Below, one piece after another: positions 34,814 through 52,411 of a DNA stretch of 64,000 nucleotides. A program made the translations under genes and the position numbers. How positions within the stretch are numbered: position 1 is the first letter of the stretch; each line of letters starts with the position of its first letter. The notes beneath the pieces were generated by a model, which was given only the letters and a program-made list of their open reading frames with translations, made no database searches and was not told the DNA's origin. Source of the stretch: an uncultured Chthonomonadaceae bacterium. GTDB taxonomy: Bacteria > Armatimonadota > Chthonomonadetes > Chthonomonadales > Chthonomonadaceae. The stretch is from assembly GCA_963817895.1 (NCBI GenBank), contig CAWFQB010000003.1:683651-747650 (forward strand). The letters run 5' to 3'.

Positions 34814-37800
34814 CTATTTTGTCTTCTTCCCGTTTTTGGGAGCGTCGTTGGAACCGTCTTTGCCGTTGTCGGTTTCAGCCGGTTCGATCAGGACTTGTTG
34901 CAGTTCATTGCCCGTTTGCGCGGCGGCAATCACTTCCTGTTCCACTTCGTCTGTGTCCACGAGCCGCTCAATGGTGACGACTTTATCGCCCGTGTTCAGG
35001 TTCATCAGGATCACGCCCTGCGTTTTACGGCTTTGCGTCTCCTTAATTTCGCGGATAGTGGTTTGAATGGTGACGCCCTTTTCGCTGATAATCATCAGTT
35101 TGTCATCTTCATGCACAATCGCCGCCGCAATCACCGGCCCCGTTTTGGTCGTTACATCCATCGTTTTCAGGCCGCGTCCGCCGCGTCCCTGACGGGTATA
35201 CTTGCTCAGGTCGGTGCGCTTGCCCAGCCCGTTTTCACTGACCACAAGCAACTGCTGCCGCGTGTCCGGGGCAATCACATCCATCGTGACCACATTATCG
35301 TCAAGGTCGCGTGTGCCGGGAGCGCGCATTTCAATGCCCCTGACGCCGCCCGCCGCCCGTCCCCGCGTGGGCGTGTCGGCTTCGGCGAAGCGAATGGACA
35401 TACCTTTTCGCGTGACCAGAACCACATCCTGCAAACCGTCCGTATGCTTCACCCAGTTGAGATTATCGCCGGTTTCCAGGTCGAAACAGTTCAGCCCGTT
35501 GGCGCGCAGGTTGGCGAACTCGGAAAGGGACGTGCGCTTGATTTCGCCGTATTCCGTCGCCATGAGCAGGAAGCCATCGCCCTGCATGTTCTTCATCGGC
35601 AGAATGGCCGTTATCTGATCGCCCGGCTCCAGTTGTATCAGGTTATTGATATGCTGTCCGCGCGCCTGTCGGCTTGTGGCCGCCACCTCGTAGGCTTTCA
35701 GGCGGTACACCCGTCCCCGATTGGTGAAGAACAGAATGTAGTGCGTCGTGGTCGCCACAAACAGGTGCGCGAGGCTGTCCTCGTCCTTCAGGTTGGCTGC
35801 CGCCACGCCCCTGCCGCCGCGCTTTTGAGTCCGGTAGGTGTCCATCGGCACGCGCTTGATATAGCCGTCGCGGGAAATGGTCACGAGCGTCTGCTCTTCG
35901 GGAACCAAATCCTCTTCGGTGATCTCGTCGGCTTCGAGGGGCAGGATGCGCGTCCGCCGCTCATCGCCGTACTTGTCGCGCAGCGCTTTCAGTTCGTCCT
36001 TGATGAGTTTGACCACGCGGGCCGGCGTCACGAGAATGTCTTCCAGTCGCGCGATCTCTTTGAGCAGGTTTTTGTACTCGTCTTCGATCTTCTGCGCTTC
36101 CAGTTGCGCGATCTGGCGCAACTGCATGTTCAGAATCGCTTCGGCCTGTATCTGCGTCAATCCGAACCGCGCCACCATTTCCGTACGCGCCGTTTCGCTG
36201 TTCGCCGCGCGCCGGATGAGGGCGATAATCTCGTCCAGAAAGTTGAGCGCGATTTGCAAGCCTTCGCGGATGTGCGCGGCCTGCTTCGCCCGCTGAAGTT
36301 CGTAGCGGGTTCGGCGGGCGATCACTTCCTTGCGGTGCGCGACATGCAGGTTGATGATTTGCGCCAGATTGAGCATCTTGGGCTGGCCGTTGACGAGGGC
36401 CAGCATGATGATGCCGAACGTCTGGCGCAGTGCCGTATGCTTGAGCAGGTAGTTGACGATGCGCTTGGGCAGCACGTCCCGGCGCAGCTCAATGACCATT
36501 CTCATGCCGTGCTTGTCGGAAAAGTCGTTGACATCCGTGATGCCGTCAATCTTCTTTTCTTTGGCAAGTCCGGCAATGGTTTTCACGAGCATCGCCTTGT
36601 TGACCTGATAGGGCAGTTCGGTCACGACAATGGCGTTTTTGCCCCCGTCCATCGGCTCGATCTGCAATTGCGCCTGCATGATAACGCGCCCGCGCCCGGT
36701 GCGATAGGCTTCCTTCGCGCCCTTCGTGCCTAAAATCAGAGCGGCAGTGGGGAAGTCGGGAGCCGGAATGAACTTCATCAGGTCGTCGGGCGTGGCCTCG
36801 GGATGATCCAGTAAATACAGGTGCGCATCCACCACTTCGCGCAGGTTGTGCGGCGGCATACTGGTGGACATTCCCACCGCGATGCCTTCGCCGCCGTTGC
36901 ACAAGAAGTTGGGGAACTTGCCCGGCAACACTATCGGCTCGCGCTTGGACTGGTCGTAGTTGGGCATGTAGTCTACCGTCTCGCGCTCGATGTCTTCCAG
37001 CATCTCGACGGCGAGCGGCGTCATGCGGCACTCCGTATAGCGGTAGGCCGCAGGCGGATCGCCATCAACACTGCCCCAATTCCCTTGAGGGTCAACAAGG
37101 GGATAGCGGAGGCTGAAATCCTGCGCCATGCGAACCATCGTGCCGTAAATCGCGCTGTCGCCGTGCGGGTGATACGAACCCATGCAGTTGTGTACCAACA
37201 TGCCGTTGGCGACAAACTCATGGTCGCGGGCCACCTGAATGTCATAGGTGACATCTTCTCCGGCGTCCCGTATCGCTTTCACCTGACTGAAGGTGATTCC
37301 GCTTTCCGTTAATTGCTGCACGAAATGCGCGTAGTCCGAACCGATGGCTTGCAGTTTATTGCGAATGTTCAGCTTCACCAGCGTGGAAAAATAAACCTCA
37401 AATGTTTGCGCCAAATCTTTGTGACAGCGCAGTTTGACGCCGTTCTCGTGCTTCAGTCCGGCGCGAACTTTCTGACCGGAAGCGCCCATGTACCAGCCGC
37501 CGCCGAGATGTTTGGCTTGGAACTCCGCGATAATCTTCTGTCCGAGATAGGGAATGTGCTGCCCGCGTTCCGCCGTGAAACGGTTTGTTGTCGCATGGGA
37601 ATGCAGACGCCTTCGCTTCTCCGCGTGTGCCAGATCGAGATGCTCTGCCGCCCGCTGGAACGATAAACTGTAAACTTCCAGAACGTGGTTTGCATAGCGG
37701 CCATACACCGGCTTATCGCCAACGCGTCCCTCAACCGGCGCATACGTATAAAGGTGGCTGTGGATGTTCAAGCTATGAAGCAGAACTTGCGTCTGGCGAA

Positions 37801-38800
37801 TGAACGTTTCGGAAATACTGGTGAAAACCAGCGTGTTATCTTCCTTGTTAATGGAACCGTCGCCATCCACAAAGCCCGACAGGAACGCCCACGCAACGCT
37901 TTTGGGCGAACGGAAGACGGCCTCGGGTATGGCGATGTTATGCGCGTACTTGCCCCGTATGCCGAAAGCGTTGAGCAATTGGTTATTAAGTTTCGAGTTG
38001 TTGATGCGCAGGCAATGCAAACCCGCTTTGTCGGTAATGTTCGACTTTTCGCCAAACTGTTCGAGCAGAATGGTTTGCAGTTTCTGAATGATTTCCAGAC
38101 TCCCGCAGGAAAAGCCGATGCGGTCATAACCCCGTCGCGCGTCACGGCAGACCCAGTCATCCGCAAGGAAAAAGCCGAGCAGATACGCGATGTCTTCGTT
38201 TAGCGTGACGCCATCCACATCAATGTAATCGGCAATTTGGGAGGCAGCGGAACGGGAAATGATGTACTCGCCGGGAGTCAGTTCATTCGCCTGTTTCCAC
38301 GCCACCTGTAATTCCGGCGTGAGAACCTTGAACTTCTGATCCACTGTGCAGACGTTCTTCATGCCGCTTGCCAGTTCCACTTCGAGCAGGGATTGACGCG
38401 GCATGATGTAGGTTTGCGTGATGGGACAAACGCCATTTTGGGTGTAAACCTCATCTCCGATTTGCAAATCTTCGATAGGCAGCAAGCCTTTGGGCGTGGA
38501 TACGAGCGTACCCTCGACGAAACATGTCCCGACGACCTGCGCCGACTTGACGCGGGCGCTTCCCGGCCCCAAACCTAAGTCGCGCATGGTGGCGAGGATG
38601 CGACGTTGCACGGGTTTGAAGCCGTCGCGCACATCGGGAAGGGCGCGCGAAATCAGCGTGGAAACGGCGTAGCCCAGATACGAGCGGCGCAGTTCCTGCT
38701 CTATGTCTATGAGCATGGAACCGCCCGCGCCATCGCTGCTGCCGTCGTCCGGGGAACGTTCCGCGCGGGGCGGTATGGGAGGAAGATTGGTATCTGCCAA
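34814..38800 (-). CDS. gyrA: DNA gyrase subunit A, intein-containing
   Basis: [31 protein letters not shown], GyrA-box QKRGGRG, C-terminal pinwheel repeats. Confidence 0.96.
37187..38524 (-). mobile_element. Intein (446 aa) with LAGLIDADG homing endonuclease domain
   Basis: Starts [18 protein letters not shown] and [10 protein letters not shown]; ends [18 protein letters not shown] followed by Cys; removal restores [18 protein letters not shown]. Confidence 0.95.
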
Positions 38801-39153
38801 CGGACTCTCCTGAAAATGTTGCGCAGGCGTGAAGCGGACGCTTTAATGTAAACGCTTATGCCTGCCGGGTGAAGAACCATCCGACGCGCTAAAGAATAGT
38901 GGTATGCGGAATGGCTAAAAAGGGTGTGTTGCCTCTCATTAATTGTTATATTGTACCATTTACGTACAATTTTGTCAACGTTCAAGAGGGACATAGCGGG
39001 CAGTCCACGGGGCTTTCAACCCCTTTAACCTGTTACTGCGAAAAGGTGGCGGAAACAGGAAACAGATGCGCAAACATTGCGGCGCGGCCTGCGTAAAATG
39101 GGAACGAAGACCACAAAACACAACAGCGGCAATAAGAGCCTATCCCAACAAAT

Positions 39154-39196
39154 TCTCCTTCCCCAAACTTGGGAGAAGGGGCATGGGTTGAGGGCT
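39154..39196 (-). repeat. REP-like palindromic unit (same family as 30168-30258)
   Basis: Reverse complement reads tagccctcaacccatgccccttctcccaagtttggggaaggag. Confidence 0.75.
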
Positions 39197-39227
39197 AATT
39201 GTATGGTCGCGCGCAGAGGAGATGTGA

Positions 39228-43146: not shown

Positions 43147-43461
43147 ATGGCTGACGAGATGAGCAAGCGGGAAGAGATCGAGGAAATTCTGACGGACGCT
43201 TATGGCGAGTACGAGCAGATGAGCGCGTGGGAAAACACTTTTTTGGAGCAGGTAGAAACGCCATTCAAGGCCAATCTGATGGGCAGTCCGGTGGAGGTCC
43301 TCGGCTTTCAGGTCGGCGCAAGCGACACGCTGCAATGTGAGGTGAAAGCGAAAGGCAAACAGCGCTGGATTGCCGTAGAAGATTTGGACGAGGAGGGTCT
43401 GCCGGAAGATGCCGCGCATTATCTCGACCTGTATCAATCGTGGCTGGAAGGCGGCTACTGA
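43147..43461 (+). CDS. Acidic calcium-binding protein (CcbP-like)
   Basis: EEILTDAYGEYEQMSAW..ETPFKA..YQSW pattern; very acidic. Confidence 0.6.
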   Translation: MADEMSKREEIEEILTDAYGEYEQMSAWENTFLEQVETPFKANLMGSPVEVLGFQVGASDTLQCEVKAKGKQRWIAVEDLDEEGLPEDAAHYLDLYQSWLEGGY

Positions 43462-43516
43462 TCCTCTTGACGAATGCGCCGGAACTTGCTACGCGAAAAA
43501 GATGAAGGATGAAATC

Positions 43517-44023
43517 ATGGCAATCATACCTGAGATGCCCTTGACTCCTGAAAACGCTTATGAACATGCAATGAGAATTATAGAACAGAAATGGCTGGAC
43601 GCTGGAGTCACACAGGAAGAGATTGATCAAAGCGAAGAATTCACAGATATTTTTGATCGTCTGGTAGGATCAGGTTACGCGCGGGAGATTATCTATGCGG
43701 CATGGGACGCGGATTATACCGGGTATGATAATCCGGCCCTCGCCTTATACCTGCGCCTGCTTGCTATCGCCGAACGCGCCCTGCCCGCCACCGATCCCAT
43801 GCTGTCACAAATTCTGTTCAGCCTTGCGAAGCAGTATCAGGCAAGCGGCAATCCGGCGGCTGCCGAACCGCTCTATGCCCGCGCCCTGACCCTGCGAGAA
43901 CAAACGTTCGGCATACAACATCCCTTAACCATACAAGCGCGTGAGGCTTATACGGCCTTGCTGTGTGCCGCAAATAGATGCGACGAGGCTGATAAACTGC
44001 AAACCATGCTCGTGCCTGCCTGA
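43517..44023 (+). CDS. Tetratricopeptide repeat protein
   Basis: LAKQYQASGNPAAAEPLYARALTLREQTFGIQHP (kinesin-light-chain-type TPR). Confidence 0.75.
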   Translation: MAIIPEMPLTPENAYEHAMRIIEQKWLDAGVTQEEIDQSEEFTDIFDRLVGSGYAREIIYAAWDADYTGYDNPALALYLRLLAIAERALPATDPMLSQILFSLAKQYQASGNPAAAEPLYARALTLREQTFGIQHPLTIQAREAYTALLCAANRCDEADKLQTMLVPA

Positions 44024-44140: not shown

Positions 44141-46468
44141 ATGCAACCGGGCAGCAAACTGGGAAAATACGAAATCTTACAATGGTTAGGTGGTGGCGCG
44201 GCAGGCACAGTCTGGCTTGCTAAAGATACGACGCTGAACAAAAATGTTGCCCTGAAAACCATTGAAACGCACCCAGACAACCGCCAGGAAACGCTGAAAG
44301 AAGCGCAAATTCTGGATCGTCTGAATCATCCTGCTCCGCATCCTCACATTGTTCGCTTCCACACCGCTAGCATTGAACCTCCTTACGTTGTTCTTGATAT
44401 GGAGTACATCAAAGGACAAACGTTGAGCAGACTGCTGGAAGCGGAAGAGTCTCTTTCTCTTGAACGCTCCATAGAAATCGCTGCGCATGTTCTTGACGCG
44501 CTTGCCTTTGCCCGAACTAAGCACATTTGTCACCGAGATATCAAACCTGCGAACATTCTTATTGGAACTGATGGTTGCGTAATGCTGACGGATTTCGGTA
44601 TTGCTGACCACTTGGACACTAAATCTGTGATGGTTGGAGGCGGATCCCCGGCCTACATGGCGCCTGAAGTATTTGCGCCAACCCCGCAGATGGATTATCA
44701 GTCGGATGTTTGGTCAGTTGGAGTTGTGCTGTATGAGATGTTAAGCGGACAGCGACCCTTCAAACCATCAAAAGGCACACCTGAATGTACAACACAGGCA
44801 CGTTGGCAGGAGGCAATTACGACACAAACCCCAAGGCCGATTACGACATTCGTGCTGGACGCCCCGCCTGCTCTGCAAATCGTGCTGAACCGCGCTCTGG
44901 CTGTCAAGAAGAGTGAGCGATTTCCAAGTGCGCAGGAGTTCTATGACACGCTCGTTCGAACTCGTCTTTACAATCCGCCTCTGACAAAAGAGGAGATGGA
45001 ACGCGAACGGCATTTCCGTCAAGTGTTTGCGTCCATCGAGAAATGGATGGATAATGCCGTACAACCAGTGCAGGTAATAGGCTTTAAGGATGTCGTTCGT
45101 GAGTACGCGAGGCAAAATCCGGCTTGGTCTGATACAGATGAGCTGCTGCGACTTGCGAACATACGCAACCGCTTCTCTCACGAACTTACGCAGGAGAATG
45201 AGCGTCGCCTATTGCCCACACTTGCCGATATTGCTTTGATTGAGCGTATCAATACGGCTCTTGTTTCAACCTTGCCGGAACGCTCCCCGTCCACGACAAC
45301 TACGGTCAACCCCATTACCACCTGCAAGCCAAAACCGCTAGAAGTGAAAGCGAACCTTGTCAATGAGTCTGCACAGCAGCCTGTCGCCTCCGCCGCAACA
45401 CTGCCAGTTCAACCGGTGAACAACGATAACAGCGAGCCAGAGATAGCGAAAGTTGACCATGTGGCTGTTTCAGTACAAATAGCCGCTGAACAATCCAGCA
45501 GGAGCAAGCAAACATCTCAACGACAGGCGAAATCACCAGAAAGAGTAGAACAGACTGCCAAGCCACAGCCCGTTCGTGACCGCAAACCGTTGAGCCAACC
45601 GAAGGCTGTACGGACGAGATTACGACGCTTCCTGTTCAGTACGTCCATTCTCTGTACCTTCTGCGCACTTGTCTGGTTTACAATGTCTATGGTTGCATCA
45701 AAGCAGCGACAACATCGGTTCGACCAGATTCTTGCAGATGCGGTCAAACGCAATGATGTTAACGGTGTGCGAGATGCGCTTCATCAGGGAGCCAACCCCA
45801 ATGGTCTTGATAAAGAGGGCCAGTCCATCTTCGGAATCTCACAAGAAAGTTACGACATAAGTGTTGATCAGGCAAACTCTACTATGGAGGCCGCGGGAGA
45901 TACAAAAAGATATGAGTATTATAATTCTGCAATCATGCAAGCTATGCTTGATGCACGAGCCGATGTCAGCAAATCCACCTTCGACGGAACACTCCCGTTT
46001 ATAACCTCAGTACGTTTCGAATCTCCGGGAACAGTTCAATGCTTTCTGAATCATGGTTGTAGGATCAATTCAAGGGGCAATACTTCTTTCGTAAACTCCG
46101 ATGTAGACAAAGGGGAAATGATTTCCGGGCTAACTGCAGTACATGCGGCGACTGTACGCAAGGATACTGCCGTTCTCAAACTACTGCTTGAAAATAACGT
46201 ATATATCAATGTTCAGAATAAATTAGATAAAAATTATATAAAATTCCATTGTGGGTATAATGTTGAATACCAGAAGTTGCCAGATGGAGTGACCGCGCTT
46301 ATGCTAGCTGCCGGGAACAAAAGAAACACCGCCCTGAAAATGTTGCTTGGATATGGCGCGGATACTAACCTCGTGGACAACAAAGGCCGAACTGCACTGA
46401 CTTATGCCAAACTGGCCCATAACGACATTGGGGTTCAATTGCTAAAAAACGCGGGAGCAAGACTGTGA
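44141..46468 (+). CDS. Hanks-type Ser/Thr kinase fused to a putative HEPN domain, TM helix and ankyrin repeats
   Basis: GGGAAGTVW, VALK, HRDIKPANIL, DFG, YMAPE, SDVWSVG; RNRFSH; TM; GxTA(L/V) ankyrin repeats. Confidence 0.85.
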   Translation: MQPGSKLGKYEILQWLGGGAAGTVWLAKDTTLNKNVALKTIETHPDNRQETLKEAQILDRLNHPAPHPHIVRFHTASIEPPYVVLDMEYIKGQTLSRLLEAEESLSLERSIEIAAHVLDALAFARTKHICHRDIKPANILIGTDGCVMLTDFGIADHLDTKSVMVGGGSPAYMAPEVFAPTPQMDYQSDVWSVGVVLYEMLSGQRPFKPSKGTPECTTQARWQEAITTQTPRPITTFVLDAPPALQIVLNRALAVKKSERFPSAQEFYDTLVRTRLYNPPLTKEEMERERHFRQVFASIEKWMDNAVQPVQVIGFKDVVREYARQNPAWSDTDELLRLANIRNRFSHELTQENERRLLPTLADIALIERINTALVSTLPERSPSTTTTVNPITTCKPKPLEVKANLVNESAQQPVASAATLPVQPVNNDNSEPEIAKVDHVAVSVQIAAEQSSRSKQTSQRQAKSPERVEQTAKPQPVRDRKPLSQPKAVRTRLRRFLFSTSILCTFCALVWFTMSMVASKQRQHRFDQILADAVKRNDVNGVRDALHQGANPNGLDKEGQSIFGISQESYDISVDQANSTMEAAGDTKRYEYYNSAIMQAMLDARADVSKSTFDGTLPFITSVRFESPGTVQCFLNHGCRINSRGNTSFVNSDVDKGEMISGLTAVHAATVRKDTAVLKLLLENNVYINVQNKLDKNYIKFHCGYNVEYQKLPDGVTALMLAAGNKRNTALKMLLGYGADTNLVDNKGRTALTYAKLAHNDIGVQLLKNAGARL

Positions 46469-46782
46469 TTTCCGGTTCATCCGAAATGGAACCAACCATA
46501 TCAACCATACAGGCAACGCTTCTTGATTTGTTGCCGAGTAATCCGTCTGCATTGTTGTACGAGAAGCAGGCGCGCTACAAAGGTGGAAGCCGCTTGTTTA
46601 CGCAGAAGGTAAATGTACCGGATGAAAGTTTGTTTCAGCGTCTATGCCATGAAGCGAGCAAAGGCAGCGAGATCAAAATAACTGTCACAACGGAATGGCG
46701 CGAAGATCATAGTGTCGCTTACGTTTCAGATGCCGAACTACTGCAAACGGCTACTTGCGAAGCCCTTGTAAGCGCGGCGTAA
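46465..46782 (+). CDS. Hypothetical protein coupled to the kinase gene
   Basis: 105-aa ORF; GTGA overlap with the kinase stop. Confidence 0.55.
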   Translation: MISGSSEMEPTISTIQATLLDLLPSNPSALLYEKQARYKGGSRLFTQKVNVPDESLFQRLCHEASKGSEIKITVTTEWREDHSVAYVSDAELLQTATCEALVSAA

Positions 46783-46814: not shown

Positions 46815-47150
46815 TCAGGTGACGGCAAATTCGGTGAACTTGCGTTTTGCGGGGTGATGAAATCCTAAGACGATCTGTTCCTGTGGGATGCCGGCTTCCA
46901 GCAGTTCATCTACAATCCCGTTTTTTGTGCCGTCGTGCTGCACCCATAGTTTGTTGTCCCGAAAGTCAATATGGATTACGCTGCCGTGTACGCGCCGCAC
47001 TCCGTCCCAACCGGTGTAGAACAGGATGTAGTGACCATGTTCGTCATCGAACACGGTTTCCGCAGTAACATTGGCATAGGCGGGAATGAAGTCCGCATAT
47101 TCTTGAATGATGCGCTTCACAACCGCGCGATAATTTTCTACTCGATCCAT
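46815..47150 (-). CDS. xisI: XisI family protein
   Basis: FDDEHGHY..GWDG.RRVHGSVIHID..WVQHDGT..IVDELLEAGIPQEQIVLGFH. Confidence 0.9.
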   Translation of the reverse strand: MDRVENYRAVVKRIIQEYADFIPAYANVTAETVFDDEHGHYILFYTGWDGVRRVHGSVIHIDFRDNKLWVQHDGTKNGIVDELLEAGIPQEQIVLGFHHPAKRKFTEFAVT

Positions 47151-47554
47151 CTTACGATGTTCTCTCCTTCGGCATCAAACAGCAGCAAGCGAATCATTGT
47201 TGCGGCAACCAGATCGCGCGCATCCGCCGTATTGAAAACGGCCTCGTAAGTGTCGGCGGAAACGCATAGAAACAGGGTACGTTCCGGCTCCTTGCGCTGA
47301 ATAAGAAAGCGGTACAGCGTGAATTGACCGAGCGCGCGTTCCAAATCCGTCATAGGAGATTTGCCGAGAAAACTTTTGATCTCGACAGCAATTTTGCGCC
47401 CCTCCTTCTCGGCCCCGATAGGCGCTTCTGCTCCCAAATCAACGTACAGGTCTTCCTCGCCGAATTTAAGTGGATAGGGGTCATGCGTAATTACCCACCC
47501 CTCGGCTTCCAGCGCTTGTCGGACGATAGCATGGTAGGTATCTTTACGCGGCAA
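47138..47554 (-). CDS. xisH: XisH family PD-(D/E)XK protein
   Basis: KDTYHAIVRQALEAEGWVITHDP, VDLGAE, IAVEIKSF, ALGQF. Confidence 0.9.
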   Translation of the reverse strand: MPRKDTYHAIVRQALEAEGWVITHDPYPLKFGEEDLYVDLGAEAPIGAEKEGRKIAVEIKSFLGKSPMTDLERALGQFTLYRFLIQRKEPERTLFLCVSADTYEAVFNTADARDLVAATMIRLLLFDAEGENIVRWIE

Positions 47555-47621: not shown

Positions 47622-47658
47622 AACGCCCCGCTTTCCAAAATATGGAAAGCGGGGCGTT
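47622..47658 (-). terminator. Intrinsic terminator of groESL
   Basis: aacgccccgctttcca-aaata-tggaaagcggggcgtt followed by a T-rich tract on the minus strand. Confidence 0.7.
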
Positions 47659-47725: not shown

Positions 47726-49471
<1,746 letters not shown>

Positions 49472-50877: not shown

Positions 50878-51135
50878 ATGACGCAAATCGCTATCAAACA
50901 GGCGGAAACGCAACTGACTCAGCTGGTACAGGCGGCTCGGCGTGGTGAAGATATTGTTCTCATGGAGAACGATACACCGGTAGCCCGTCTGGTATCTATT
51001 GCCGAACCCGAATCCAAGCCCAAACCGCGCCCGCAGTTTGGCAGCGGCAAGGGATTGATTCTCTACATGGCTCCTGACTTCGATGCCCCAATTGGAGAAT
51101 GTGCCGTTGCGCCCACTTCCTGTGAAGCGGAATGA
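50878..51135 (+). CDS. Phd/YefM family antitoxin
   Basis: IKQAETQLTQLV..A.RGEDIVL..PVARLV..RPQFGSGKG..MAPDFDAP. Confidence 0.8.
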   Translation: MTQIAIKQAETQLTQLVQAARRGEDIVLMENDTPVARLVSIAEPESKPKPRPQFGSGKGLILYMAPDFDAPIGECAVAPTSCEAE

Positions 51136-51452
51136 GCTATACTGAGCAAAGGTTATGTGAAATGAACATAGATATAAAGTCAATTGTTGAGCAATGCTCA
51201 ATGCTCCGTTTGCAAATCAACAAAGGTGAGCGACACCGAATAATGCGTAATGGCGTGAGGCGAGGAAGCCTTTGGGTGACGCCTGGAACCAACTGCTACT
51301 GTGTTTGCGTCACTGGTGAAACTGAGGCAATTTTGTACGATTTTCTACGCAGCGATTTCGGGGCTGAAACTGGCGAAGATCAAGGAAAGAAGTATTGGAA
51401 TGTCATCAGCATCAAGGATGTTGATAAAATCATTCGGCAATTCGACAAATAG
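51132..51452 (+). CDS. Hypothetical protein (lower GC), translationally coupled to the antitoxin
   Basis: 106-aa ORF; ATGA overlap. Confidence 0.45.
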   Translation: MSYTEQRLCEMNIDIKSIVEQCSMLRLQINKGERHRIMRNGVRRGSLWVTPGTNCYCVCVTGETEAILYDFLRSDFGAETGEDQGKKYWNVISIKDVDKIIRQFDK

Positions 51453-51614
51453 ACGCGCAGTAACTATGCGCGACGGTCCCAATATACGATAAAGGAGAAC
51501 ACGGTTCTTTGCATCCCGGTTTTGGCAATAATGGTTTGTGCTGTCAGAGCAATGAGCGTGAAGGCGCGGCAGTGTGTGTTATACTATTCAGCATACACGC
51601 AGGAGGTACAAACA

Positions 51615-51911
51615 ATGAATGAGACGGCGTATCGGACATGGCAGGCGCTGCATGACCGATGGGCGCAGGGCGAAGCGCTGACCCCGGAAGAGCAAGAAGT
51701 GTATGAGGCGGGTTGCGCCGAACTGGACGCCGAAGAGGTTTTGCCAGGAAGCCTAAAGAACTTACAGGCTATTCATGCCAAAGCGAAGGAGTTGGACGCG
51801 CAGATTGCCCGCGCGCAGTCAGAATCCGTCGCGCTGCGGACGCAAATCGCGGAAACAGAAACCCGTTTAAGTGAAGCGACCCGCCGCAGGCTAGGCCTTT
51901 CCACCCACTGA
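51615..51911 (+). CDS. Hypothetical coiled-coil protein
   Basis: AGGAGG RBS; overlaps the HNH start (TGATG). Confidence 0.6.
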   Translation: MNETAYRTWQALHDRWAQGEALTPEEQEVYEAGCAELDAEEVLPGSLKNLQAIHAKAKELDAQIARAQSESVALRTQIAETETRLSEATRRRLGLSTH

Positions 51912-52411
51912 TGGCCCACCCAAAACATGAACAAGTACGGCAACGCTACAATTTTTGCTGCGGCTATTGCGGCGTGTCTGAGACAAGCAGCGGCGGTGAA
52001 CTGACGATTGACCATTTCGGCCCTGTGTCCAAAAACGGCGACGATAGTGACGCTAATCTTGTCTATGCCTGTAGCCGATGCAATCTGTTCAAGAGCGACT
52101 TCTTTCCTGACCCGGCAACTTCCGCGCCGGAACACCGCCTGCTGCATCCACTTTTGGACAATACGGAATTGCATTTTCGGGAGGATGATTATGGACGCCT
52201 TCAGTCTTTGAGCGTCACCGGTTTATTCCACATCCGAAAACTGCGATTGAACCGGCCTCAACTCGTGGATTACAGACTGATGAAGCAGGAAGAACGGCTA
52301 TGGCAGGAGCGTATTCAGCATCTTGAGCGAATGCTCGGCGATGTAAATGTTTCCATAGAAGAATTGCGAGAACTGTCAGAGCGTTTAAGGCAGGATATTG
52401 GCGATAAGTGA
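51911..52411 (+). CDS. HNH endonuclease
   Basis: CGYCG..LTIDHF.P..NLVYACSRCNLFK. Confidence 0.85.
   Translation: MAHPKHEQVRQRYNFCCGYCGVSETSSGGELTIDHFGPVSKNGDDSDANLVYACSRCNLFKSDFFPDPATSAPEHRLLHPLLDNTELHFREDDYGRLQSLSVTGLFHIRKLRLNRPQLVDYRLMKQEERLWQERIQHLERMLGDVNVSIEELRELSERLRQDIGDK

Follow-up and report, generated by a model that had tools for sequence, protein, structure and literature searches.

Kinase-coupled ribonucleases (RNases) of the HEPN superfamily have been described as eukaryotic, and Ire1 and RNase L are the closest parallels in layout to the gene considered here. In both, a kinase or pseudokinase is joined to a KEN domain. The sensor of Ire1 is N-terminal, and the ankyrin repeats of RNase L are cytosolic and N-terminal. 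The gene, whose product is called P0001, lies in a 64,000-nucleotide stretch of a contig from an uncultured Chthonomonadaceae bacterium (the whole stretch that was analysed is called the window below) and encodes, in order, a kinase, a domain that is very probably HEPN, a linker, a predicted membrane helix and ankyrin repeats. Our favoured explanation, to which a probability of about 0.5 can be given, is that P0001 carries a kinase-gated HEPN endoRNase module, with a PknB-type kinase bearing a minimal HEPN RNase on its C-lobe; the module is best read as rare, independently evolved and furnished with exchangeable tails.

In the accessible parts of the sources cited here, the signature used by HEPN RNases is given as a conserved Rx4-6H with a polar residue after the arginine (PMC3710099), and HEPN enzymes are described as dimeric (PMC13092281). 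The same parts of the 2013 survey list KEN as eukaryotic, give no specific prokaryotic relative of it, and describe both HEPN-CBS fusions and membrane-linked HEPN proteins (PMC3710099). One protein that combines CBS and HEPN, DS-11, is anti-phage, and its defence needs the CBS ligand site as well as HEPN residues (PMC13092281). No bacterial kinase-HEPN fusion was found in the literature, with the limit that the detailed supplement of PMC3710099, which was not covered, could hold one; the main text of that survey, as far as accessible, contains none in 11 uses of the word "kinase", and PMC10542128, to the same extent, deals with separate TerY-P kinases.

The P0001 gene is a single open frame that runs uninterrupted for 2,328 nt from an ATG at 44141 to a stop at 46468, and its homologues share the start methionine in alignment. 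Its parts are the following (aa, amino acids).

44141..46468, + strand: P0001 gene, kinase-HEPN-linker-membrane helix-ankyrin, 775 aa
44141..44965, + strand: Hanks (PknB-type) Ser/Thr kinase domain, aa 1-275, catalytic motifs all intact, RD type
44987..45262, + strand: very probable HEPN domain, aa 283-374, four helices, short gap-free junction to the kinase C-lobe
45164..45181, + strand: RNRFSH, the Rx4H signature (R342, N343, H347), aa 342-347, at the end of helix 3
45263..45610, + strand: Pro/Gln/Thr/Ser-rich linker, aa 375-490, not conserved in sequence or in the comparison of tails
45611..45697, + strand: RTRLRR basic patch and single membrane helix predicted from hydropathy, aa 491-519
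45707..46459, + strand: ankyrin region of about 5-6 repeats, several of them degenerate with inserts, aa 523-773, from Pfam Ank matches and likeness to paralogues

A preliminary description of this DNA had proposed most of these parts, including an intact Hanks kinase, and the kinase was borne out by a Pfam Pkinase match at aa 10-261 (E 2e-50) together with every canonical catalytic residue (GxGxxG 17-22, K39, E54, HRD 131-133, N138, DFG 151-153, APE 174-176, D189 and R260). The helical domain placed right after the kinase was also recovered, with bounds of about aa 283-374, and the position proposed for RNRFSH agrees with aa 342-347. Similarly, the membrane helix expected after RTRLRR corresponds to one hydrophobic segment at aa ~497-519 (Kyte-Doolittle 19-mer peak 1.86). 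By the positive-inside rule, and with no signal at the N-terminus, the topology would be N-in/C-out, in which case the ankyrin region is probably extracytoplasmic. Of the roughly five ankyrin repeats proposed, the repeat region itself stood up, but only two stretches pass Pfam (within aa 704-773), the rest, from about aa 523, being degenerate and seen through paralogues.

The assignment of the middle domain to HEPN begins with its predicted fold, for which the top six structure matches were all HEPN toxins. The model is an all-alpha bundle with HEPN topology, and RNRFSH, an Rx4-6H with a polar residue after the arginine, sits at the end of its third helix (residues 57-72 in the numbering of the domain model). 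In long six-frame stretches of the host genome RxxxxH occurs by chance 0.28 times per 105 aa, and RNxxxH 0.01 times; the RxxxxH motif alone is therefore weak, and it is conservation together with fold that carries the case. Of 69 distinct related domains, 66 retain RNxxxH; the acidic E300 is likewise conserved (66/69), and the Ex3[KR] spacing was not seen in P0001. The closest solved folds are type VII toxins of the HepT/MntA kind (HEPN-T/HEPN-M: 1wwp, 1jog, 5yep, 7ae2 and 1ylm), in which Rx4H ends the same helix; identity is 10-20%, and the alignments begin at residues 17-35 of the toxin chains, so that their first helix is unmatched. A difference from these systems is that no MNT partner lies beside the P0001 gene.

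None of the 13 aligned members reached the threshold score of any curated HEPN profile, the best being HEPN_RiboL-PSP (E 0.003), HepT-like (0.06) and NTase_sub_bind (0.13), and judged by its sequence the domain is a subfamily without a curated model. A search of PDB sequences with the HEPN profile gave one match, a chance one, and the ESM Atlas returned unnamed clusters and DUF6548 on 11-18% of members, both weak leads.

What recurs with this domain is the kinase. The combination with an intact motif was found in six protein clusters, P0001 and five others, so the fusion is no one-off; the other kinase-fused HEPN domains are only 30-34% identical to that of P0001. In the alignment of the six the junction is gap-free, and R273, Y277, P280, E285, R342, N343, H347 and E348 are invariant around the junction and in the domain. 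A two-domain model of kinase and HEPN (pLDDT 90.2, pTM 0.85) suggests that the HEPN domain packs in a fixed way on the kinase C-lobe. A homodimer prediction for aa 1-375 scored 0.32 against a mark of 0.42, with three controls at 0.00, and counts neither for nor against pairing. One relative, the P0003 type, occurs as two alleles at four loci from metagenomes, the ones confirmed among 49 pattern matches. Between the two alleles nonsynonymous over synonymous divergence (dN/dS) was 0.044/0.342 for HEPN and 0.033/0.352 for the kinase; purifying selection on the kinase-HEPN part is thus seen in one allele pair. One of these alleles is frameshifted in the N-lobe and ends just after HEPN, near what looks by eye like transposase debris.

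The tails of the six members show no significant similarity to one another, save for a short weak repeat common to P0003 and P0004. Membrane helices are predicted in P0001, P0004 and P0006 and in none of P0003, P0005 and P0013; two other members, like P0001, end in a linker and membrane helices. Ankyrin repeats occur in P0001 only. The architecture foreseen by the preliminary description therefore recurs as kinase-HEPN in five other clusters and with the ankyrin tail in none of them, and the conserved unit, as the sequences compare, is kinase-HEPN and not the tail.

Further searches widened the set very little. A word-indexed search with aa 276-385 recovered the query alone among 159 candidates, a kinase-HEPN profile search was swamped by generic kinases (0 of 119 non-self proteins among the matches listed scored on the HEPN profile), a pattern scan of GTDB genomes gave 26 stretches with none confirmed, and a second scan of the phylum with the kinase-fused profile returned largely the same genomes and no additional fusion. 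Kinase-HEPN is a real, apparently undescribed and rare bacterial module that on the best reading is convergent on the design of Ire1 and RNase L.

What P0001 shares with those two enzymes is a HEPN-superfamily domain directly behind a kinase, bearing Rx4H with a polar residue next to its R, and a chain that also contains a membrane helix, as in Ire1, and ankyrin repeats, as in RNase L. There are also differences. The kinase of P0001 is of the PknB type, and its HEPN domain is kin to bacterial HEPN-CBS proteins. The order of parts differs as well, with a flexible linker of about 115 aa between enzyme and membrane and the ankyrins, by the predicted topology, across it. In Pfam scans that listed matches up to E 1, the KEN profile, which we take to be Pfam Ribonuc_2-5A, matched neither P0001 nor P0002 nor any of the 13 members aligned. 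Among the matches listed, no structure chain spans both kinase and HEPN domains, and the 50 rows for the HEPN model and for the kinase-HEPN model hold no chain of Ire1, RNase L or KEN, an absence that does not exclude a KEN fold. The RNase L/Ire1-like architecture first proposed holds for the layout, the sequence comparisons do not support membership, and the relation is better called analogy.

Both halves of the module in fact point to bacterial sources. By sequence and structure the kinase is PknB-type, with bacterial PknB, Stk1 and StkP as best matches; relative to PknB/Stk1 receptor kinases, P0001 has an inserted HEPN domain and ankyrin repeats instead of PASTA (NF033483 score 196 against a cut-off of 450). 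In a 44-row tree, which included no Ire1 sequence and did not fix its exact place, P0001 shares a subfamily (99/95) with a kinase that is widespread in the lineage and lacks HEPN (47-49% identity). The host's own copy of that lineage kinase (L014:2-907, at the start of contig C5) is truncated where the contig begins and carries a frameshift, which may be a sequencing error. The HEPN domain has its homologue in the N-terminal domain of HEPN-CBS proteins of ~240 aa (26 of 27 matches carry CBS), and stand-alone HEPN-CBS proteins are its closest kin. The domain was found in 24 of 401 genomes of the phylum. One copy of the ~240-aa form is present in each of 20 genomes, out of 27, of a single family and in one further genome; its 20 complete loci (L018-L037) make one BLAST cluster with RNxxxH intact in 20/20, and a CBS-type tail was seen by eye in the four translations read. 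The host alone among the 401 genomes has an intact kinase-HEPN fusion. A 37-row HEPN tree, rooted by midpoint only, places nine kinase-fused domains and one long-branch CBS member on one side of a 96/92 branch, which makes a single fusion event plausible.

In two genomes of the host's family, of two genera, a kinase is joined to a motif-less HEPN-like domain and an FGE-sulfatase domain (L012:1272-3347, - strand; L011:1099-3204, + strand). At both loci one and the same conserved small gene precedes the fusion; where HRD is expected the kinases have HGD and HRN, and the products may be pseudokinase-pseudoRNase proteins.

Domains that have lost the motif bring up the rival that survives best, namely that the HEPN domain is non-catalytic, a dimerisation or RNA-binding extension of an ordinary receptor kinase that acts by phosphorylating other proteins. 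Non-catalytic HEPN domains are described in the accessible part of PMC3710099, two relatives keep the domain without the motif, and the P0001 domain groups with these two at 95/84, all on long branches. Against this, the motif's R, N and H and the E that follows are invariant in 6/6 kinase-fused clusters despite their low identity, which is hard to explain without catalysis. We regard this explanation as unlikely, if a serious contender.

In the favoured explanation, a HEPN domain of the bacterial HEPN-CBS family would have been fused onto a lineage-specific kinase. HEPN-CBS proteins follow the same logic, a nucleotide-binding module gating HEPN, and the kinase may have replaced the CBS pair in the role of nucleotide-binding switch. 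Two copies brought together would trans-autophosphorylate or bind adenine nucleotide, and their pairing would align the two RNxxxH motifs to form a single endoRNase site that needs no metal, like that of other HEPN enzymes. Cellular RNA would then be cut, and translation or growth would slow as a stress or conflict response. The C-terminal tail would be exchangeable and set location or input; in the host, a membrane helix and ankyrins from a locally expanded family would turn the module into a type II receptor kinase-RNase. The support computed directly consists of the fold, motif conservation, the fixed junction, purifying selection in one pair and the variable tails; RNase activity, gating, ankyrin sensing and phage defence are inferences that go beyond it.

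Two points weigh against this explanation. Ankyrin sensing is the weakest step of the mechanism: with so long and flexible a linker, clustering of outer ankyrins could only raise local concentration and not transmit a rigid change. The ankyrin sensor had been put forward as the input of the system, a role that its absence from the five other clusters, three of them without a predicted membrane helix, denies it as a conserved feature. The second point is rarity, since six clusters with an intact motif limit the weight of the finding.

The tail itself is best read as a local acquisition, as it resembles a locally expanded family: 36 other frames of the host genome match it (E <= 0.001), and in 22 of these a hydrophobic segment precedes the ankyrins. 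Its nearest paralogue is a stand-alone membrane-anchored ankyrin protein (29% identity over 259 columns). The expanded family numbers at least 36 in the host genome (e.g., L015:2577-3386), and most of its proteins begin with a membrane anchor or signal; as far as was examined here, nothing points to a host-associated life of the bacterium.

A second rival, which the preliminary description favoured, makes the locus an anti-phage or envelope-stress system, with an outer ankyrin sensor, an abortive-infection outcome and two neighbouring genes as partners:

43409..44023, + strand: upstream TPR gene (Pfam TPR_12), a neighbour and no dedicated partner
46465..46782, + strand: downstream 105-aa open reading frame (ORF) of a small dispersed family, no Pfam match, a neighbour and no dedicated partner

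The topology is receptor-like, the gene is patchily present at a variable site beside groEL, and DS-11 sets a precedent; moreover, the intact P0003-type allele is flanked by a HEPN gene pair (Pfam HEPN) and a PIN-like pair, the latter label given by eye without a Pfam match. The partnership, however, was rejected, for both genes occur without the kinase gene. In the congener G002 a mere 72 bases, with no kinase gene, separate the TPR gene from the homologue of the ORF; the corresponding interval of the window is 2,493 bases long and holds the kinase gene. The TPR copy of G002 is frameshifted, so gain and loss of the kinase gene are not distinguishable. Nine of 68 genomes contain homologues of the ORF, as many as seven in one genome, and 14 loci with them had no kinase, HEPN or ankyrin match within about 1.5 kb. 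The ORF's reported overlap with the kinase gene is 4 nt with a GTG start and disappears if the in-frame ATG at 46486 is used.

PADLOC matches of P0001 run through its generic kinase and its HEPN domain has none; among five neighbours only an HNH gene 5 kb away matches. Ankyrins, again, are found in one of six clusters, and the distribution of the HEPN-CBS sister family looks more like that of a resident gene. The locus is a variable slot beside groEL with no recognisable defence island, and a defence role of this kind is rather improbable. As for named defence families, membership in PD-T4-6, MADS6 and PglW/BREX was rejected (NCBIfam MAD6 171/460 bits, PglW 83/990; PADLOC kinase-driven, no partner matches), as was membership in DS-11 (NF053863), since P0001 lacks CBS and does not match the DS-11 model; the host genome has no DS-11 match, and sister HEPN-CBS proteins score a weak 16-20 bits against a cut-off of 260, via CBS (E 4e-4, 19.7 bits).

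A third rival is a toxin-antitoxin system in one gene, where phosphorylation by the kinase would hold a HEPN toxin off, much like AMPylation by MNT, and loss of ATP or inhibition of the kinase would unleash it. The closest folds are indeed HepT-type toxins regulated by covalent modification, and no separate antitoxin is conserved beside the kinase-HEPN gene; yet the six members have no conserved Ser, Thr or Tyr adjoining the motif, and the CBS pairs of the sister proteins suggest allosteric control, which leaves this a long shot. It is very improbable that neutral shuffling in the recent past, or a chimeric assembly, produced the form with the ankyrin tail and left its halves functionally unlinked, for although this form is known from one contig only, draws its tail from an expanded family and has a lower G+C content (GC) in the ankyrin part (0.45 against 0.50), its frame is uninterrupted, a nearest paralogue at 29% identity offers no repeat to misjoin, and two other members likewise end in a linker and membrane helices. 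By segment the GC of the gene is 0.45-0.54, against about 0.57 for the genome. Among the sequencing runs listed, two DNA runs contain this DNA at a small share and no RNA run does; the contigs aligned to the locus covered mainly the TPR gene, and none of them crosses the fusion.

The surroundings of the gene have features of their own. Downstream of groES-groEL lies an xisH-xisI pair (46815-47554, - strand) that is syntenic in the congener G001, where everything from the DUF2382 gene to xisI-xisH-groEL is missing in between. In G002 the slot next to xisI is occupied by an adenylate-cyclase-like domain that is joined to an FGE-sulfatase domain (L045:7468-8847), another signalling fusion at this variable site. 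A perfect 16-bp hairpin after groEL (47622-47658) is a probable bidirectional terminator; a promoter and terminator scan gave counts no higher than the shuffled level. Between groES and a pyrD-like gene, 50878-52411 holds a Phd/YefM-like antitoxin gene, an unknown 106-aa ORF and an HNH endonuclease gene. Elsewhere in the window are a gyrA with an intein carrying LAGLIDADG endonuclease domains (34814-38800, - strand) and two dispersed intergenic repeats, 39126-39210 and 49361-49420, with 49 and 65 blastn matches in the genome (E <= 1e-4), the latter a low-complexity GTAG/GTAGG run.

A bolder claim, possible but doubtful, is that the design of Ire1 and RNase L arose separately in bacteria, as a receptor Ser/Thr kinase that switches on a HEPN RNase fused to its C-lobe and, via an ankyrin ectodomain, turns an outer signal into inner RNA cleavage. 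If true, the family would amount to an experiment of nature in which a kinase takes over from CBS as the switch and sensor tails are traded, and it would provide a model of how KEN-kinases may have originated. A bacterial module of separate origin would show convergent design, and kinase-HEPN would offer a 375-residue test system for the gating of a HEPN site by a kinase. It would also connect another type of switch with the HEPN-CBS family, which is widespread and uncharacterised.
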